Source of the DNA: Thermoanaerobaculia bacterium
GTDB taxonomy: Bacteria; Acidobacteriota; Thermoanaerobaculia; Multivoradales; Multivoraceae
Reading direction: 5' to 3'
Length of the DNA: 64,000 nt
NCBI GenBank assembly: GCA_963666565.1
Contig: OY762911.1
Coordinates: 1,312,001-1,376,000, forward strand
In this document: piece by piece, positions 46,992 to 63,989 of the stretch
How positions within the stretch are numbered: position 1 is the stretch's first letter
How the letters are laid out: each line of letters starts with the position of its first letter
Notes under the pieces: model-generated
Databases searched by the model: none
Seen by the model: the letters and a program-made list of their open reading frames with translations, nothing else
Told to the model about the DNA's origin: nothing
Made by a program: the position numbers and the translations under genes

Positions 46992-47219
46992 GTCGTTTCC
47001 TCGTTGAAGCGGGAGGCTGGACGGCTGCCTCGCTGGCGACGGGCCGGGGCGAAGTGTCGCCGGTGCGGTCAGTACGAAAACAAAAGCAGGAGGACCGTAG
47101 CACAGGAAAGTGGCCCTGATGCGGTTTTTCTTTTTGAAACATGCCTGAACTGTTGGAACTTTCAGGAATCCGTGAACGCTCCGCGCCGGCGGCCACGTAC
47201 CGGGTGCGCCGGCGTGCCA

Positions 47220-47277
47220 TTCGTGCGCCCGGTTACGGGCGCACGAACTGGTTCGCATGTGGCGCGGGCCGCGCCAC
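47220..47277. terminator. Two strong hairpins (putative terminator)
   Basis: TTCGTGCGCCCG-GTTA-CGGGCGCACGAA and GTGGCGCG-GGC-CGCGCCAC downstream of the FGE gene; no clear U tract. Confidence 0.45.
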
Positions 47278-47357
47278 CTGGGTTCCCGCCGGCTGCCGCC
47301 GGAGGCGGCCAGGAACGCGCCCGCGAGCGGCGACGATCGCGCGCTGCGTTCAGGCGC

Positions 47358-48284
47358 TCAGCGCGGGCTGCGGGCGCAGCGGAAGCCGGTGTTGTCGAGG
47401 CCGGAGTCGGGCGCGGAGTCGTTCCGGTTCGCGTTCCGGTAGCCCTCGCAGTAGCTCGCCGCGCAGAGCCAGGACCCGCCCTTCAGGACCTTGTGGCCGC
47501 CGGCGCCGTCGGGCCGGTACCAGTCGTCGATCCACTCCCAGACGTTGCCGCCGAGGTCGAACACGCCGAGAGCGTTCGGCGGATAGGAACCGACGGGCGC
47601 CAGGTAGGCGTGGCCGTCGGCCGCGTCGTCCCGGGCGGGGAAGTCCCCCTGCCAGACGTTCGCCACCCACTCGCCCGCGGGGGCCGGCGCCTCGCCCCAC
47701 GGGTAGCGGGCGTGGCCCGCGCCGTCGTTGCCGGCCGCGGCTGCGAGGTCCCATTCCGCCTCGGTCGGCAGGCGCTTGCCGCGCCACTCGCAGTAGGCCC
47801 GGGCGTCGCCCCAGCTCACATGGACGACCGGCAGGTCGGCTTCCGCCTCGGAACCGGGTCCGCGCGGATGCTGCCAGTCGGCGTCTTCGACGGCCAGCCA
47901 CCAGGGAGTCCCCTGGGGCCGCTGCTCCAGCTCCGGGTTGGCGGTGGCCTGAGGGTGGAAGACCAGGGACCAGCCCCAGCGTTCGGCCTCGGTCACGTAG
48001 CCGGTTGCGTCGACGAAGGCGGCAAAGTCGTGGTTCGTCGCCTCGTATGGGTCCAGGTCGAAGGCGGCGACGGCGAGGTCGCCCCCCGGACGGGAAACCG
48101 CGCCGGCGGGCACGCGGACCATCCCTGCCGGCGGCGGTCCCGGCGCCGCCGCGGGCACCTGGGCAGGCGCCGGAGCCGGCGTCGCGGCTTCCGGCGGATC
48201 CGGGCCGGCGTCCCCGCAGGCCGCCGCGACGAGCAGCCCGATCGCCAGCAGCAAGCCGTAGCGGTGCGAGAGTCGGCTGCACAC
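47358..48284 (-). CDS. Formylglycine-generating enzyme family lipoprotein
   Basis: Lipobox VAAAC, RLPTEAEW, GNVWEW, GGSWLCAASYC with both catalytic Cys. Confidence 0.9.
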   Translation of the reverse strand: MCSRLSHRYGLLLAIGLLVAAACGDAGPDPPEAATPAPAPAQVPAAAPGPPPAGMVRVPAGAVSRPGGDLAVAAFDLDPYEATNHDFAAFVDATGYVTEAERWGWSLVFHPQATANPELEQRPQGTPWWLAVEDADWQHPRGPGSEAEADLPVVHVSWGDARAYCEWRGKRLPTEAEWDLAAAAGNDGAGHARYPWGEAPAPAGEWVANVWQGDFPARDDAADGHAYLAPVGSYPPNALGVFDLGGNVWEWIDDWYRPDGAGGHKVLKGGSWLCAASYCEGYRNANRNDSAPDSGLDNTGFRCARSPR

Positions 48285-48285
48285 C

Positions 48286-48345
48286 GGGTGCGCGGGTCTT
48301 CCGGCCCGCTGCCGCCGAAGGCGGCCGGACAAACGCGCCGGCCGG
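48286..48345 (-). repeat. Composite REP-like element
   Basis: GGGTGCGCGGGTCTTCCGGCCCGC + GCCGCC-GAA-GGCGGC. Confidence 0.8.
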
Positions 48346-48376
48346 AAGGCCGGCGTCCGCCACGTCCGCACTGCCC

Positions 48377-48712
48377 TCACGGCCTCCACCCGAACCGCTC
48401 CAGGTCGATGCAACCCCGCCGGTCGAACACGATCCCCTCTTCCTGAAGCAGAAACCGCTGCCGGTCGACGCTCTCGATCGGGTCGAACCCACGGTCGCTT
48501 ATCGACCCCTTCACGTTGACCACCCGGTGCCAGGGCACGCTCCCGTCCTCCAGCCGGGCCAGCACGTAGCCCACCTGCCGCGCGTTGCGCGGATGTCCCG
48601 CGAGGGCGGCAATCTGGCCGTAGGTCGCCACCCGGCCCTCGGGAATCAGCCGCACGAGCCGGCGGAAGGTCTCGTGCCGGGAGTCCGTTCGTTGGCGGCC
48701 AGCCGCATTCAT
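48377..48712 (-). CDS. Alkyltransferase-like (ATL) protein
   Basis: IPEGRVATYGQIA, ARQVG, PWHRV. Confidence 0.92.
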   Translation of the reverse strand: MNAAGRQRTDSRHETFRRLVRLIPEGRVATYGQIAALAGHPRNARQVGYVLARLEDGSVPWHRVVNVKGSISDRGFDPIESVDRQRFLLQEEGIVFDRRGCIDLERFGWRP

Positions 48713-48727
48713 CGCGTGAACCTTACC

Positions 48728-48808
48728 GGGTGCGCGGGTCTTCCGACCCGCTCGCCGCCGAAGGCGGACAGAAACGCGCCGGCCGTCAGGACGGCTCCGC
48801 TCGGCGGC
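48728..48808 (-). repeat. Composite REP-like element
   Basis: Core at 48728-48751 plus accessory hairpins; similar to the copy at 53566. Confidence 0.85.
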
Positions 48809-48832
48809 GTTCTGCTACCTTGCCGGCCAGGA

Positions 48833-50101
48833 ATGTCCTCCGCCGACCGAGGTCGCAGCCGCCTCGACCGGCGGCGCAACTACGCCGCGCTGCTCGCCCA
48901 CGGCCTGCTCGGCATGACGGGGTTCCGCCTGCTCCAGGCGCCGACCTTCCTGCCGACCTACATCAGCCTCCTGACCGGCGCCAACGCCGCGGTGGGCATC
49001 GCTTCGGCCTGCCAGAGCCTGGGCATGTTCGTGTCGCCGCTCCTGAGCGCCGCCCTCGTCGAGCACCGCCGCCACGTCAAGTGGGTCGCTCTGCTGTTCG
49101 GCGGCCTGATGCGGTTCCAGATGCTGCTGCTGGCCCTGGTGGCGCTGCTCGCCCCGGTCGAGGTGGCGGTCTTCCTGGTCTGGCCGGTGCTCCTGGTGTG
49201 GGGCGTCTCCAGCGGGATGCAGATGGTGGCGTTCAACCTGTTGTTCGCGAAGTCCGTGCCGGTCGGCCGCCGCGGTCGGCTCCAGGGAACGCGGAACCTG
49301 GCCGCCGGAATCTCCGTGATCCTGCTCTCCGTCGCCGCGGGCTGGGTGCTCGACCGCTACGGCTTCCCCCGCGGCTACGGCCTGACCTTCCTGGGCGCCG
49401 CGCTCCTGGCCGCGACCGGACTGGCGTTCATGGGCCTGATTCGCGAGCCCGCTGCGCTCGACGTCCACGACGCCGGGCTCAGCATGCGCGCCCGGTTGAG
49501 CAAGCTGCCCGTGCTGCTCCGCTCCGACCGGAACTACGCGAGCTTTCTCTCGGCGCGGCTGCTGGCCGGCGCCGCGCGGGGCGCCCTGCCGTTCTACGTT
49601 CTCCTGGTCGGCGAGCGGTTCGGCGTCAGCGGCGCGCGGCTGGCCGGGCTGACCGTCACCTTCGCGGCGGCGCAGTCGGCCGGCGCCCTGGTCTGGGGCC
49701 TGCTGGGCGACCGCTCGGGATACCGGGCGGTGTTCGTCCTGGCGCTCGTATCGTGGATTCTGGGCAGCGCGATCGTCCTGTGGGCGCCGGTCTTCCCGGT
49801 GGCCTACGCCGTCTTCCTGCTGGTGGGGGCGGGCTTCTCCGGCGTGATGCTCGCGTCCCAGAACCTCGTCCTGGAGTTCGGGCGGGAGCGAGACCGTCCC
49901 ATGCGCATCGCCGCCACGCAATCGCTGGCCGAGGCGTGCGCGGTGGCCGGTTTCGTGACGGCCGGCGCGGTGAGCCAGGTCGCGCCGGTCGAGAGCGTCT
50001 TCCTGCTGGCGACCGTGCTGCACGTGCTGGCGTTGCGGAAGCTGATCCGCATCGAAGACCCGCGCCGGACGGCGCGGGAAACGGTGGCCGACCGGGTATA
50101 G
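48833..50101 (+). CDS. MFS transporter
   Basis: About 12 hydrophobic segments; WGLLGDRSGYR motif A. Confidence 0.88.
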   Translation: MSSADRGRSRLDRRRNYAALLAHGLLGMTGFRLLQAPTFLPTYISLLTGANAAVGIASACQSLGMFVSPLLSAALVEHRRHVKWVALLFGGLMRFQMLLLALVALLAPVEVAVFLVWPVLLVWGVSSGMQMVAFNLLFAKSVPVGRRGRLQGTRNLAAGISVILLSVAAGWVLDRYGFPRGYGLTFLGAALLAATGLAFMGLIREPAALDVHDAGLSMRARLSKLPVLLRSDRNYASFLSARLLAGAARGALPFYVLLVGERFGVSGARLAGLTVTFAAAQSAGALVWGLLGDRSGYRAVFVLALVSWILGSAIVLWAPVFPVAYAVFLLVGAGFSGVMLASQNLVLEFGRERDRPMRIAATQSLAEACAVAGFVTAGAVSQVAPVESVFLLATVLHVLALRKLIRIEDPRRTARETVADRV

Positions 50102-50109
50102 GCCAGTCC

Positions 50110-50125
50110 TGGCACGCGTGTTGCT
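50110..50125 (+). promoter_or_regulatory. sigma54 (-24/-12) promoter
   Basis: TGGCAC-GCGTG-TTGCT, exact GG-N10-GC spacing. Confidence 0.75.
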
Positions 50126-50136
50126 TCCTCCCCACC

Positions 50137-50430
50137 GTGCCGGGACTGCAAGCGTCGTCCCGACAGATGTGGAATACACCGGAGGAGGTCCCTCACCAAC
50201 TCTCCCGCCCAGTTACCGAGAGCCGACCGGCGGCGCCGCAGCCGCGCTCACGACGCTTGTTCGAGCCGTTGCCCGCGCCACTTCTCGCCGGTTGAGCCTC
50301 CTGCTCGGATCTCCTTCTTGCCCGGCACCTTCGGGCGAGCCTTCCAGGATCCTCACCCCGGACCTCCTCCGCTTCCGCTTCCCCAGTCTGCCTTCCATGC
50401 GCCGTTGCCGCCGTCGACTGGCGGCGCCGG
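50137..50430 (+). ncRNA. Candidate sigma54-dependent structured sRNA
   Basis: Gene-free gap after the sigma54 promoter; serial hairpins with CTCCT/CCTCC loops; terminal GC-rich hairpin. Confidence 0.45.
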
Positions 50431-50456
50431 CACCGTACTGCGCCAGAATGGCGCGG

Positions 50457-51980
50457 TCAGAGGCTGAGACGCTCGTCCAGGTAGCGGGACACCGCGTCCA
50501 CGGACAGCCGATCCTGGGTGCCCGTGTCGCGGTCGCGGACGGTGACCGTCCGGTCGTCGAGGGTCTGTCCGTCGACGGTGAAGCAGAAAGGCGTGCCGGC
50601 CTCGTCCATGCGCGCGTAGCGCTTGCCGATCGACTGCTTCGCGTCGTACTGGATGCGGTAGCGCCGGCGCAGCTCGAGGTACAGGGACTCCGCGATCTCC
50701 GGCATGCCGCCCTTGTTGACCAGGGGGAAGACGCCGGCGTGGACCGGCGCCAGGCGGTGCGGGAAGCGCATCAGCTCGGAGGACGGCCGGCTCTCGTCGA
50801 CGGCGTACGCCTCGCAGAGCAAGGCGAGCACGCCGCGGGTCAGGCCGGCGGCAGGCTCGATCACGTGCGGCGTGAAGCGTTCCCGCGTCTGCTGGTCGAA
50901 GGTGGCCAGCTTGACGCCGCTCCACTCCTGGTGCTGGTCGAGGTCGAAGCTGCCGCGGTGGGCCACGCCCTCCAGCTCGCCGTATCCCGGGTCGGTGAAC
51001 GGGTACATGTACTCGATGTCGAAGGTGCCTTCCCCGCTCTGGGCGTAGTGGGCCAGTTCGGACGCCTCGTGGCGGCGCAGGCGCAGGCGATCGCCGGCGA
51101 GGCCGAGGCCGCTCCACCAGTCTCTCCGCGCTTCGGTCCAGAACTCGAACCAGACCTTCGCCTCGGAGGGGTGGCAGAACCACTCCATCTCCATCTGCTC
51201 GAACTCGCGGGTCCGGAAGATCCAGTTCCTGGGGGTCACCTCGTTGCGGAACGCCTTGCCGATCTGCGCGATGCCGAACGGCAGCCGGACCCTCGACGTG
51301 TCCAGCACGCCCTTGTAGTTCAGGAAGATGCCCTGGGCCGTCTCGGGCCGCAGGTAGGCGGCGTTGTCCTCGCCGGAGGCGGCGCCGATGAAGGTCCTGA
51401 ACATCAGGTTGAAGTCGCGCGCCTCCGTCAGGGTGCCGGGCTGCGAGGCGCCGGGGGCCCAGACTCGCGCCCGCGCTGCCTCGTCGAGTTCGGAGAGGGG
51501 CAGCGACTCGAAGTCGTCGAGGCCGGGCCGTCCGCGCATCGCCTTGCGGGCGGTCCGGAGCGCCGGTTCCGGTTCGCCTTCGAGGTAGGCGAAGTACGCG
51601 GGCGTCTCCAGTTCGCGCTTCGGCCGCAGGACGTGCAGGTGGTCGGCGCGGAAGCGGGCCTTCGTCTGGCGGCAGTCGACCATGGGGTCGGAGAAGCCGC
51701 CGACGTGGCCGCTCGCCTCCCAGGCCCTCGGGTTCTGGATGATCGAGGAGTCGATGCCGACGATCGAGAGCGGCGCGCCGTCGGGGCCGAGCGGCGGGCA
51801 CTCGACCATGTCGCGCCACCAGGCGTCGCGCAGGTTGTTCTTGAGCTGGACGCCGAGCGGCCCGTAGTCCCAGAAGCCGTTGATGCCGCCGTAGATCTCG
51901 GAGGCCGGGAACACGAATCCGCGGCGCTTCGCGAGCGCCACGATCCGTTCCATCCGTTCGTTGCCTGTGGGCTCGGACAT
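50457..51980 (-). CDS. glyS: Glycine-tRNA ligase, alpha2 type
   Basis: EIYGG..GFWDYGPLG, YLRPETAQG, FRNE, REFEQME, VIEPAAG. Confidence 0.96.
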   Translation of the reverse strand: MSEPTGNERMERIVALAKRRGFVFPASEIYGGINGFWDYGPLGVQLKNNLRDAWWRDMVECPPLGPDGAPLSIVGIDSSIIQNPRAWEASGHVGGFSDPMVDCRQTKARFRADHLHVLRPKRELETPAYFAYLEGEPEPALRTARKAMRGRPGLDDFESLPLSELDEAARARVWAPGASQPGTLTEARDFNLMFRTFIGAASGEDNAAYLRPETAQGIFLNYKGVLDTSRVRLPFGIAQIGKAFRNEVTPRNWIFRTREFEQMEMEWFCHPSEAKVWFEFWTEARRDWWSGLGLAGDRLRLRRHEASELAHYAQSGEGTFDIEYMYPFTDPGYGELEGVAHRGSFDLDQHQEWSGVKLATFDQQTRERFTPHVIEPAAGLTRGVLALLCEAYAVDESRPSSELMRFPHRLAPVHAGVFPLVNKGGMPEIAESLYLELRRRYRIQYDAKQSIGKRYARMDEAGTPFCFTVDGQTLDDRTVTVRDRDTGTQDRLSVDAVSRYLDERLSL

Positions 51981-61382: not shown

Positions 61383-62075
61383 TCAGAACGAGAAGCCGAT
61401 GCCGGCCAGGAAGTCCACCGGCTGCTCCGGCAACGCGTCGCTGTCGAGCGCGTCGACGTAGCTGACGAACGCCGACCAGGCGCCGCCCGAGAGGCCGAAG
61501 GTGACGTTGCCGTCGTACATGCCGCCGCTCGTCCCGCCGTAGGCCGCGGCGAAGTCGTCGCCGGCCCAGCCGGCCGAGACGTCGACGCTCCAGGCCAGGG
61601 CGTCGCTCACGTCGCCGCCGAACGAGACGCCGACGTTGGCGTAGAAGTCCTTGACCTCGTCGATGTCGTAGTAGACGGAGACGCTGGGCGACGCGGTCAT
61701 GTCCCAGCCGACGGTCACGTAGAGCTCCCGCGTGCCGGCGAACGCCGTGTTCGGGAACAGGTACTCGATGAAGCCGACTTCGGCCGAGACCGCGTCGGTG
61801 CCGAAGCCGTAGGAAGCGGTGAGATCGATCTCGTTGAACTCGCCGCTCATGTCGTTCGCGTCGTCGATGTCCAGGTTGCCCCAGACGTTGATCGCGAAGC
61901 CGCTGGCGTTCGAGGCCGTGACCGAGGGCTGCCACACGGCCCCGTCGGTGAACGTGATGCCGCGCCACACGTAGGCGGAAGCGAAGTCGAGGGCGTACTC
62001 GGCATCGGCGGTTGCCGGAGCGGCCGCCAGGCCGAGCGCCGCGACGGTCAGGAGAATGGTCGATTTCCGGAACAT
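61383..62075 (-). CDS. Outer-membrane beta-barrel protein (TorF/TIGR02001-like)
   Basis: Signal peptide; SAYVWRG, EIDL..SY, C-terminal FSF. Confidence 0.75.
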   Translation of the reverse strand: MFRKSTILLTVAALGLAAAPATADAEYALDFASAYVWRGITFTDGAVWQPSVTASNASGFAINVWGNLDIDDANDMSGEFNEIDLTASYGFGTDAVSAEVGFIEYLFPNTAFAGTRELYVTVGWDMTASPSVSVYYDIDEVKDFYANVGVSFGGDVSDALAWSVDVSAGWAGDDFAAAYGGTSGGMYDGNVTFGLSGGAWSAFVSYVDALDSDALPEQPVDFLAGIGFSF

Positions 62076-62126
62076 TGGGTAGAACCTCCTTGTAGGGCGA
62101 ACGTTCGCCGGTTGCGCCGCTTCGGT

Positions 62127-62143
62127 AGCAACTCAGGTGCCAA
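62127..62143 (-). promoter_or_regulatory. sigma54 promoter for the beta-barrel gene
   Basis: Minus strand TTGGCAC-CTGAG-TTGCT. Confidence 0.85.
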
Positions 62144-62243
62144 CGATGCGGTTTGGTCTCAGAGGGATGAGAAGTCGTTGCCGGCCAAACCGTTTCCGAC
62201 ACCGTTCCCGGTCCCCCGAAACGCCCGTCCGACGGCGTCGATA

Positions 62244-62257
62244 CTACAATTCTGTAG
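62244..62257. promoter_or_regulatory. Candidate enhancer-binding site
   Basis: Palindrome CTACA-ATTC-TGTAG about 100 bp upstream of the sigma54 promoter. Confidence 0.5.
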
Positions 62258-62321
62258 CAGTCCGGGGTGACGACAGACAATCGTGAGTCTGACGCCGACC
62301 AGTCAGCGGCGCCGCCGCCGC

Positions 62322-63989
<1,668 letters not shown>

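Follow-up and report, generated by a model that had tools for sequence, protein, structure and literature searches.

We found that the 355-bp intergenic gap at 50102-50456 of the window, the 64,000-nucleotide (nt) stretch of contig OY762911.1 from a Thermoanaerobaculia bacterium (order Multivoradales, family Multivoraceae) analyzed here, is best explained as a whole as the site of an independent gene for a non-coding RNA of ~295 nt; this gene likely extends from a sigma-54 promoter at 50110 to ~50431 on the + strand. A first reading of the sequence (hereafter the original prediction) had proposed an undescribed, stand-alone, structured sigma-54 RNA gene in a 355-bp gap between convergent MFS and glyS genes, and both the gap and this general proposal were borne out. 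This sigma-54 small RNA represents a new, uncatalogued RNA family. Searches against Rfam were negative both for the gap (E ≤ 10) and for the RNA in nine related loci (E ≤ 1), and a full-text literature search brought up no report of a sigma-54 small RNA from Acidobacteria or Thermoanaerobaculia, which is not proof of unpublished status. To our knowledge, RNA regulators in Acidobacteriota are almost uncharted, and no member of the lineage studied here is known other than as a metagenome-assembled genome. The window lies on a single contig of 4.79 Mb with 70% G+C.

Promoter, conservation, and non-coding nature

The consensus promoter TGGCAC-N5-TTGCT that had drawn attention to this gap is present at 50110-50125 (+; exact sequence TGGCACGCGTGTTGCT), with the GG at 50111-50112 and the GC at 50123-50124. 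The motif TGGCAC-N5-TTGCW occurs twice in the window, compared with 0.01 occurrences expected from shuffled sequences (0/100 shuffles reached two), and four times in the whole genome. Its -24 element TGGCA and -12 element TGC are invariant in the alignment of all 42 species of the genus, and the promoter is the point where the BLAST similarity of the gap to its relatives begins. The usual sigma-54 spacing predicts a transcription start near 50135-50137. A single rpoN gene and seven genes for strong sigma-54 activators are present in the genome; an invariant promoter of this type would limit the controlling activator to one of about seven per genome, such that the question of the signal becomes testable.

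The gap was matched by BLAST in 24/24 genomes of the genus in a first sample and is present once each in 42/42 genomes, with 65-84% identity. A covariance model of the promoter and the first 60 nt (R1) gave one match in each of these 42 genomes and none in 15 genomes from 12 other genera of the family. The region is non-coding. Comparison of the 42 orthologs revealed no conserved open reading frame (ORF) in the gap, and the alignment is interrupted by many indels of one or two bases and hence of lengths not divisible by three. If the locus were instead a small-protein gene or encoded a dual-function RNA, the coding part would be either the 42-codon ORF from the ATG at 50167 (+) or the 61-codon ORF at 50213-50398 (-). 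These ORFs do exist, and the ATG is present in 37/42 species, but it is missing in the other five, has no Shine-Dalgarno (SD) sequence ahead of it, and opens peptides that lose their common frame after ~5 codons through one-base indels (EEVP vs. GGGP) and range from 27 to 99 codons in length. Furthermore, the interior of the relatives has no start codons at a comparable place, and neither ORF has a match in Pfam. We regard a coding function as close to refuted and extremely improbable, in agreement with the original prediction, which had seen no convincing protein gene here.

RNA structure in the genus

The predicted fold of 50137-50456 has an energy of -145 kcal/mol (z = -4.4), better than all 100 shuffles. 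We proposed an eight-helix structure and counted its pairs on the core alignment of the genus sequences (41 distinct). Among 1922 cells, 97.3% are paired, compared with 35-48.5% when the partners are slid by one to three columns, and four pairs have substitutions on both sides. G-U cells are more frequent than A-C cells (99 vs. 21), which favors the + strand as the transcribed one.

The structure begins with the 5' hairpin P1 (CGGGAC-UGCAAGCGUC-GUCCCG; 50141-50162, +), which has an invariant loop GCAAGCGUC and is found in this genus but is absent from other genera. This hairpin had been foreseen in the original prediction and is conserved with a swap at pair 12:23 (C-G in 19 and U-A in 19 of the 41 distinct sequences). 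It is followed by a bipartite closing helix that was identified from the fold and the alignment counts. The 5' strands (50169-50191, +) are P2a GUGGAA (50169-50174) and P2 CGGAGGAGGUCC (50180-50191), and the 3' strands (50360-50378, +) are P2 GGACCUCCUCCG (50360-50371) and P2a UUCCGC (50373-50378). P2 is a long-range helix of 12 bp that is 99.6% paired, with G-U wobbles where the 5' strand changes (G024 and G045).

This helix changes the picture of serial hairpins exposing CCUCC loops to pair with SD sequences (anti-SD hairpins), with which the gene had first been described. Because the fold joins CGGAGGAGGUCC to GGACCUCCUCCG, the supposed CGGA-CCUCC-UCCG hairpin at 50359-50371 is one strand of a long-range helix, and the strongest string of this kind, CCUCCUCC, is locked in pairing with an internal GGAGGAGG. 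The serial-hairpin picture is therefore wrong in its key element. The only CCUCC that may lie in a loop is at 50298-50302, and it is changed in 3/42 species (G024, G045, and G051). It belongs to the proposed GAGC-CUCCU-GCUC hairpin (50294-50306), for which the evidence is ambiguous: the local stem is reduced to 2-3 bp in some species, and a distal GAGC at 50220-50223 competes for the GCUC.

Between the strands of the closing helix lies a central domain (50192-50316, +) that contains a variable C-rich string, GC-rich helices that are 95-99% paired, and an invariant CUGCUCGGA (50301-50309). The helices are P4 (50220-50223/50303-50306) and P5 (50226-50231/50287-50292), with P6 and P7 between them (all +). 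Pair 107:152 of P6 is GC in 16, GU in 11, and AU in 6 sequences, while pair 99:167 of P5 is broken in 5/41 and the P4/P5 pairing is tentative. The hairpin P3 (CUUGCCCGG-CACCU-UCGGGCGAG; 50317-50339, +) agrees with a hairpin originally placed at 50318-50338; it folds at -8 kcal/mol or lower in 40/42 species from 26 distinct sequences, and helix 8 of the structure has changes on both sides. Adjacent to P3 is a conserved C/U-rich string CCUUCCAGGAUCCUCACCCC (50340-50359, +) with an invariant UCCAG, which is unpaired in the minimum-energy fold and is a candidate seed for base pairing. The 3' half is indeed pyrimidine-rich, as first noticed, with 70% pyrimidine at 50291-50400 vs. 50% in the background.

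A long GC-rich hairpin without a U-run, T1 (50401-50431, +), is the probable 3' end or terminator of the RNA. The GCCGCC/GGCGGC hairpin of the original prediction is part of it, and a hairpin of 10-18 bp is present at this place in nearly all 42 species with differing sequences, such that the shape is kept while the sequence changes. A 15-nt direct repeat (50224-50238 and 50415-50429; 93% identical) was also observed, in which the 3' arm of T1 copies the 5' strand of P5/P6. The 5' arm of T1 could pair with either copy, and the two pairings would form a terminator/antiterminator-like alternative.

Several points weigh against the interpretation as an independent RNA gene with this structure. 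Most of the helices are invariant within the genus and hence carry little covariation information, so that their support is mainly conservation, and the two-clade tree inflates apparent covariation. For the latter reason, an all-against-all covariation scan was discarded, as it was swamped by the two-clade phylogeny and gave many false covariations. No canonical or U-run terminator was found for the genus version, which makes the 3' end a guess. For the promoter, we found no activator that could be assigned to it and, in the 42 species, no shared upstream activator motif, as the common 8-mers were MFS coding sequence. In most species, the DNA ahead of the promoter is protein-coding, and ~8/42 have unrelated DNA there.

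Relatives in sister genera and across the order

In other genera of the family, glyS was located and the DNA past its 3' end was read, which provided 12 loci; one further glyS locus was left out because contig ends interrupt it, and no glyS match was obtained in two genomes that are 73% and 79% complete. The glyS loci closest to that of the window encode glycyl-tRNA synthetases (GlyRS) with 86-92% identity. Nine of the 12 have a C/U-rich RNA gene convergent with glyS, which is a conserved neighbor of the RNA gene inside this family, and the other three have nothing within 900-1400 nt. The strict motif TGGCAY-N5-YTGCW was found in 7/9 glyS-linked copies, and one copy is cut off by a contig end. 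In genus g28 (L151:1068-1342), a sigma-70-like TTGCAG-N17-CATACT replaces the sigma-54 motif, and the RNA is not significant with the model R3 described below; the motif suggests a promoter swap.

Because the MAFFT alignment of the sister-genus RNAs (A4) misaligned the helix strands by one column, the closing helix was tested by duplex folding. The bipartite closing helix is present with compensating changes in 14/14 RNAs from nine genera (nine sister-genus loci and five genus representatives), in variants such as GAGGAGGCUUC/GAAGCCUCCUC, GAAGAGGUUCCG/CGGAACCUCUUC, GGGGAGGCUC/GGGCCUCCCC, and ACGGUGA/UCACCCGU. The duplex energies of these 14 helices range from -28 to -43 kcal/mol, compared with -14 to -22 kcal/mol with shuffled 3' strands; for the host genome (G000), the values are -35.6 and -22.0 ± 3.3 kcal/mol, respectively. 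One sister-genus genome (G060) has, in addition to its glyS-linked copy (L068:1188-1403), a weak second copy on another contig (C1:672802-672955; E = 1.3e-5). The glyS-linked lineage may have begun as a duplicate.

Beyond the family, 38/151 genomes of the order were matched by R2, a model that uses sequence only and was derived from the 3' part of the RNAs of the sister genera. We inspected the top 19 loci, which come from seven families other than that of the window. A strict sigma-54 motif lies ~130 nt upstream of the R2 match in 16 of them, and the other three have GGGCAC-N5-TTGCW. Features common to all 19 loci are the helix UACGAGGGAGGUUCC/GGAACCUCCCUCGUA or variants of it, a variable hairpin, and, within a C/U-rich interior, a hairpin of the form CCCCU...ACAGGGGUA. 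In the alignment of these RNAs (A6), 94.7% of the cells in the closing helix and last hairpin are paired, compared with 41-65.5% when slid, and five pairs change on both sides (e.g., pair 15:167 with AU in 7 and GC in 7). A simple scan identified a hairpin and T-run after the RNA in 11/19 of these relatives, which is consistent with the strand assigned to the gene.

The model R3, built from these 19 other-family sequences only and run with filters off, matched 8/9 of the sister-genus glyS-linked RNAs at E = 1e-10 to 5e-4, and an nhmmer profile of the sister-genus RNAs matched all 19 other-family RNAs. In a class-wide sample, R3 matched 12/13 genomes of the order from outside the window's family vs. 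0/114 genomes of other orders. In the order-wide sample, 112/151 genomes have matches with one to three copies each, corresponding to 111/130 genomes outside the family (a count that includes genome G181, which is flagged unpublished and enters no other result). For an RNA gene that is nearly universal in these genomes, the promoter, the frequent terminator, and the covarying helix are a sufficient basis for defining a new RNA family. Tandem pairs or triplets of the gene ~100-250 nt apart were observed in family f8 (e.g., G143:C1:3790736-3791154 and G163:C83:76134-77255).

The RNA in the window has in common with the order-wide RNA family a TGGCAY-N5-YTGCW promoter directly upstream (50110-50125), a closing helix in which GAGGRAGG, rich in purines, forms the 5' strand and CCUYCCUC, rich in pyrimidines, the 3' strand (50180-50191/50360-50371), and a position convergent with the 3' end of glyS as in 9/12 sister loci, eight of which hold significant members. 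We filed it as a diverged member because of this shared glyS slot, promoter, and closing helix; the mutY slot of other families is not shared. The profile scores speak against this assignment. R3 gave no match in the host genome at E ≤ 10 and, with filters off, weak matches at the right place in 5/5 genus loci (E = 0.1-2.8), and the best nhmmer match to the genus version has E = 0.002, such that the window RNA lacks the significant score found for 8/9 sister-genus copies and the case for homology rests on shared position, promoter, and helix architecture. Also, the hairpin CCCCU-loop-ACAGGGG followed by UARAYCC, which is present in other families and in the sister genera, is absent from the 42 genus sequences, in which P3 holds the equivalent place. 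Judged from these sequence features, we consider it very likely that the window RNA is homologous to the order-wide family and assign the glyS-linked RNAs of the window's family, including that of the window, to this sigma-54 small-RNA family.

The two versions agree in their sigma-54 promoter (TGGCAC-N5-TTGCW type), in a long closing helix that is rich in purines on the 5' and in pyrimidines on the 3' strand, and in an unpaired C/U-rich interior that contains small hairpins. They differ in that the genus version is ~100 nt longer owing to P1 and the GC-rich central domain, lacks the CCCCU...ACAGGGGUA hairpin motif, and adjoins glyS, whereas the order-wide version usually lies just upstream of mutY. 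The genus RNA is very likely an enlarged, diverged, and relocated version of a sigma-54-dependent small RNA of ~150-200 nt; the gene would have moved from mutY to glyS, grown by ~100 nt, and exchanged the motifs of its interior, with the promoter and the closing helix retained.

These neighborhoods bear on a possible role in cis, in which the RNA would act as a leader or attenuator gating sigma-54 transcription into mutY in most families or, in the window's family, read-through past T1 and the downstream palindrome T2 would exert antisense or interference effects on glyS. Consistent with this, mutY (HhH-GPD + NUDIX_4) is directly downstream on the same strand at 7/10 loci examined outside the family (seven families), with a terminator-like hairpin in between in many, while the RNA gene is convergent with glyS in nine genera of the window's family and T2 overlaps the glyS stop codon. 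At 3/10 of the loci examined outside the family, dnaA is divergently upstream. Yet a purely cis role is unlikely because the promoter and RNA body are kept without a same-strand gene downstream (42/42 in the genus and in family f10) and the neighbor differs between lineages, which indicates that neither mutY nor glyS is the core function. Moreover, each tandem copy matches the full model, and the conserved part is the RNA body rather than the junction with the neighboring gene. We therefore rate a cis element as improbable.

The comparison across genera and families also bears on whether the locus is a conserved DNA element without a functional transcript, for example a protein-binding region near glyS in which the sigma-54 motif is only a binding site. 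That the gene is transcribed is itself a prediction, the very high conservation leaves few informative covariations in the genus, and the T2 palindrome is conserved in sequence, all of which would fit such an element. However, compensatory changes maintain helices spanning >150 nt in comparisons of genera and families, G-U cells exceed A-C cells in number, and the relatives show a layout of promoter, RNA, and terminator with T-runs. A DNA element of this kind appears very improbable.

Possible functions, known RNAs, and neighboring features

In the mechanism that we propose for the RNA gene, sigma-54 RNA polymerase, switched on by an enhancer-binding protein, would start transcription near 50136, and the transcript would end at T1. 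The RNA would begin with P1, followed by the bipartite closing helix, in which the SD-like purine-rich GUGGAA...CGGAGGAGGUCC would pair with the anti-SD-like pyrimidine-rich GGACCUCCUCCG.UUCCGC and enclose the GC-rich central domain, P3, and the conserved unpaired C/U-rich strings. One anti-SD string would be masked by the closing helix, which would also protect the two ends of the RNA. Upon activation, the unpaired C/U-rich strings may base-pair in trans with the purine-rich ribosome-binding regions of mRNAs, with no need for Hfq. Searches of the host genome (97% complete) for Hfq, CsrA, and Ro/TROVE gave no match. We put forward this role as a trans-acting, Hfq-independent base-pairing riboregulator tentatively, as the leading possibility but with somewhat less than even chances. 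Evidence to the contrary includes the sequestration of the best anti-SD string in the long-range helix and the lack of a translation-initiation candidate in a BLAST search for complementary sites, which returned GC-rich low-complexity noise and was not accompanied by a gene-aware search of the IntaRNA/CopraRNA type.

Protein binding would account just as well for the strictly conserved unpaired strings. In this case, the RNA would be a decoy, sponge, or scaffold for a pyrimidine-preferring RNA-binding protein, for example of the cold-shock, KH, or S1 type, or for the 30S subunit. The strings are conserved in sequence beyond composition, as seen for CUGCUCGGA and UCCAG in the genus and for ACAGGGGUA.A.C beside the CCCCU/AGGGG hairpin in other families, and the 5' purines and 3' pyrimidines are kept even where the closing helix covaries (the AU/GC exchange at pair 15:167). 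The lack of a specific mRNA complement in the BLAST search and the near-universal presence in one to three copies, which is housekeeping-like, also agree with a protein partner. On the other hand, none can be named given that CsrA, Hfq, and Ro/TROVE were not found, there are no repeated binding motifs as in CsrB or CrcZ, and the conserved strings of the genus differ from those in the rest of the RNA family, which is unexpected for one protein partner. Protein binding as the main role is doubtful, though with an appreciable chance of being correct.

A more speculative reading is that the closing helix is a working switch, the opening of which would expose a strong SD mimic that occupies the anti-SD of the 30S subunit together with anti-SD strings that mask the ribosome-binding sites of mRNAs. 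We consider this rather unlikely; if true, the RNA would be an order-wide, sigma-54-triggered, and Hfq-free global brake on translation initiation. In a variant of the switch reading, the polypurine-polypyrimidine helix and the C/U-rich single strands may form a triple helix, resulting in an unusually stable RNA.

Several known RNAs resemble the candidate regulator in part. NrsZ of Pseudomonas is a sigma-54/NtrC-dependent, stand-alone, multi-hairpin small RNA of a few hundred nt. The window RNA is likewise stand-alone, sigma-54-driven, multi-hairpin, and a few hundred nt long, but it has no Rfam match, belongs to another phylum, and has no nitrogen link that we could find. The likeness to NrsZ drawn in the original prediction did not extend to three repeated stem-loop modules, as no repeated modules were found and the only direct repeat is the 15-nt GC-rich pair. 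The NfeR1/alpha-r14 "cuckoo" RNAs of alpha-proteobacteria and RsaE/RoxS of Firmicutes carry C/U-rich unpaired motifs, and RsaE/RoxS work without Hfq. These anti-SD RNAs share with the window RNA C/U-rich unpaired motifs able to pair with SD regions. They differ in that the main CCUCCUCC of the window is base-paired to an internal GGAGGAGG rather than in a loop, that there is no Rfam match, and that those families are not known to have sigma-54 promoters. We rejected an assignment to NfeR1/alpha-r14, as CCUCCUCCC motifs in loops and an Rfam match were not found and CCUCCUCC at 50363-50370 is a strand of the 12-bp helix.

Qrr, GlmY, and CrcZ have the same promoter type, which implies a dedicated activator; the window RNA differs from them in that it lacks an Rfam match and A-rich Hfq/Crc motifs, and a gene for Hfq was likewise not found. 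Bacterial Y RNAs, such as YrlA in a sigma-54/RtcR operon of Salmonella, are similar in the pairing of the 5' and 3' ends as a long closing stem, the loop-rich interior, and the link to sigma-54. The window RNA has no Rfam match or tRNA-like domain, and the Y RNA assignment was rejected because the genome has no TROVE match. The 6S RNA, with its hallmarks of Rfam RF00013 and a rod-like fold with a central bubble, was also rejected. The 6S RNA of this genome is located elsewhere (G000:C1:625720-625906; 69 bits), and the interior of the window RNA has few purines on either side and is unable to fold into a rod. A CsrB/RsmY-type sponge was rejected because no CsrA was found and most of the seven GGA motifs are in stems.

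For regulation, the original prediction had suggested a nitrogen link through a NifA-like activator 12 kb away. The gene in question (62322-63989, -) encodes GAF, sigma-54 AAA+, and HTH_8 domains, and a second perfect sigma-54 promoter (62127-62142, -) lies between it and a Gcw_chp-family gene (61383-62075, -). This GAF-type activator thus has its own adjacent promoter and target gene, and the whole region (61383-63989, -) looks like a self-contained activator-target pair. We found nothing that ties this activator to the RNA gene, or the RNA to nitrogen, and the suggestion was not upheld.

The upstream neighbor of the RNA gene is an ORF with an MFS_1 domain (Pfam match; 47141-50101, +; start provisional). 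It holds this position in most species of the genus, and the promoter is kept in the ~8/42 species that differ upstream. On the other side, glyS (50457-51980, -) encodes a class II GlyRS with tRNA-synt_2b and HGTP_anticodon domains and is convergent with the RNA gene. The palindromic hairpin T2 (GCGCCA-GAA-UGGCGC; 50435-50458, core 50440-50454), which overlaps the glyS stop codon, may be the terminator of glyS or one shared with the RNA gene. Its sequence itself, beyond the shape, is conserved across most of the genus, and GCGCCA...TGGCGC-type palindromes are also found between the RNA and glyS in other genera. A role of T2 as an enhancer site was rejected, as GCGCCA-N3-TGGCGC is not enriched in the genome (5 copies vs. 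2-10 for control arrangements). A pairing of the -24 element with T2 that RNAalifold gave for an alignment including the promoter was likewise rejected because the promoter is not transcribed. In genome G024 (locus L010), an insertion of ~180 nt with repeated GACTGCATCG-like segments lies between the 3' region of the RNA and glyS.

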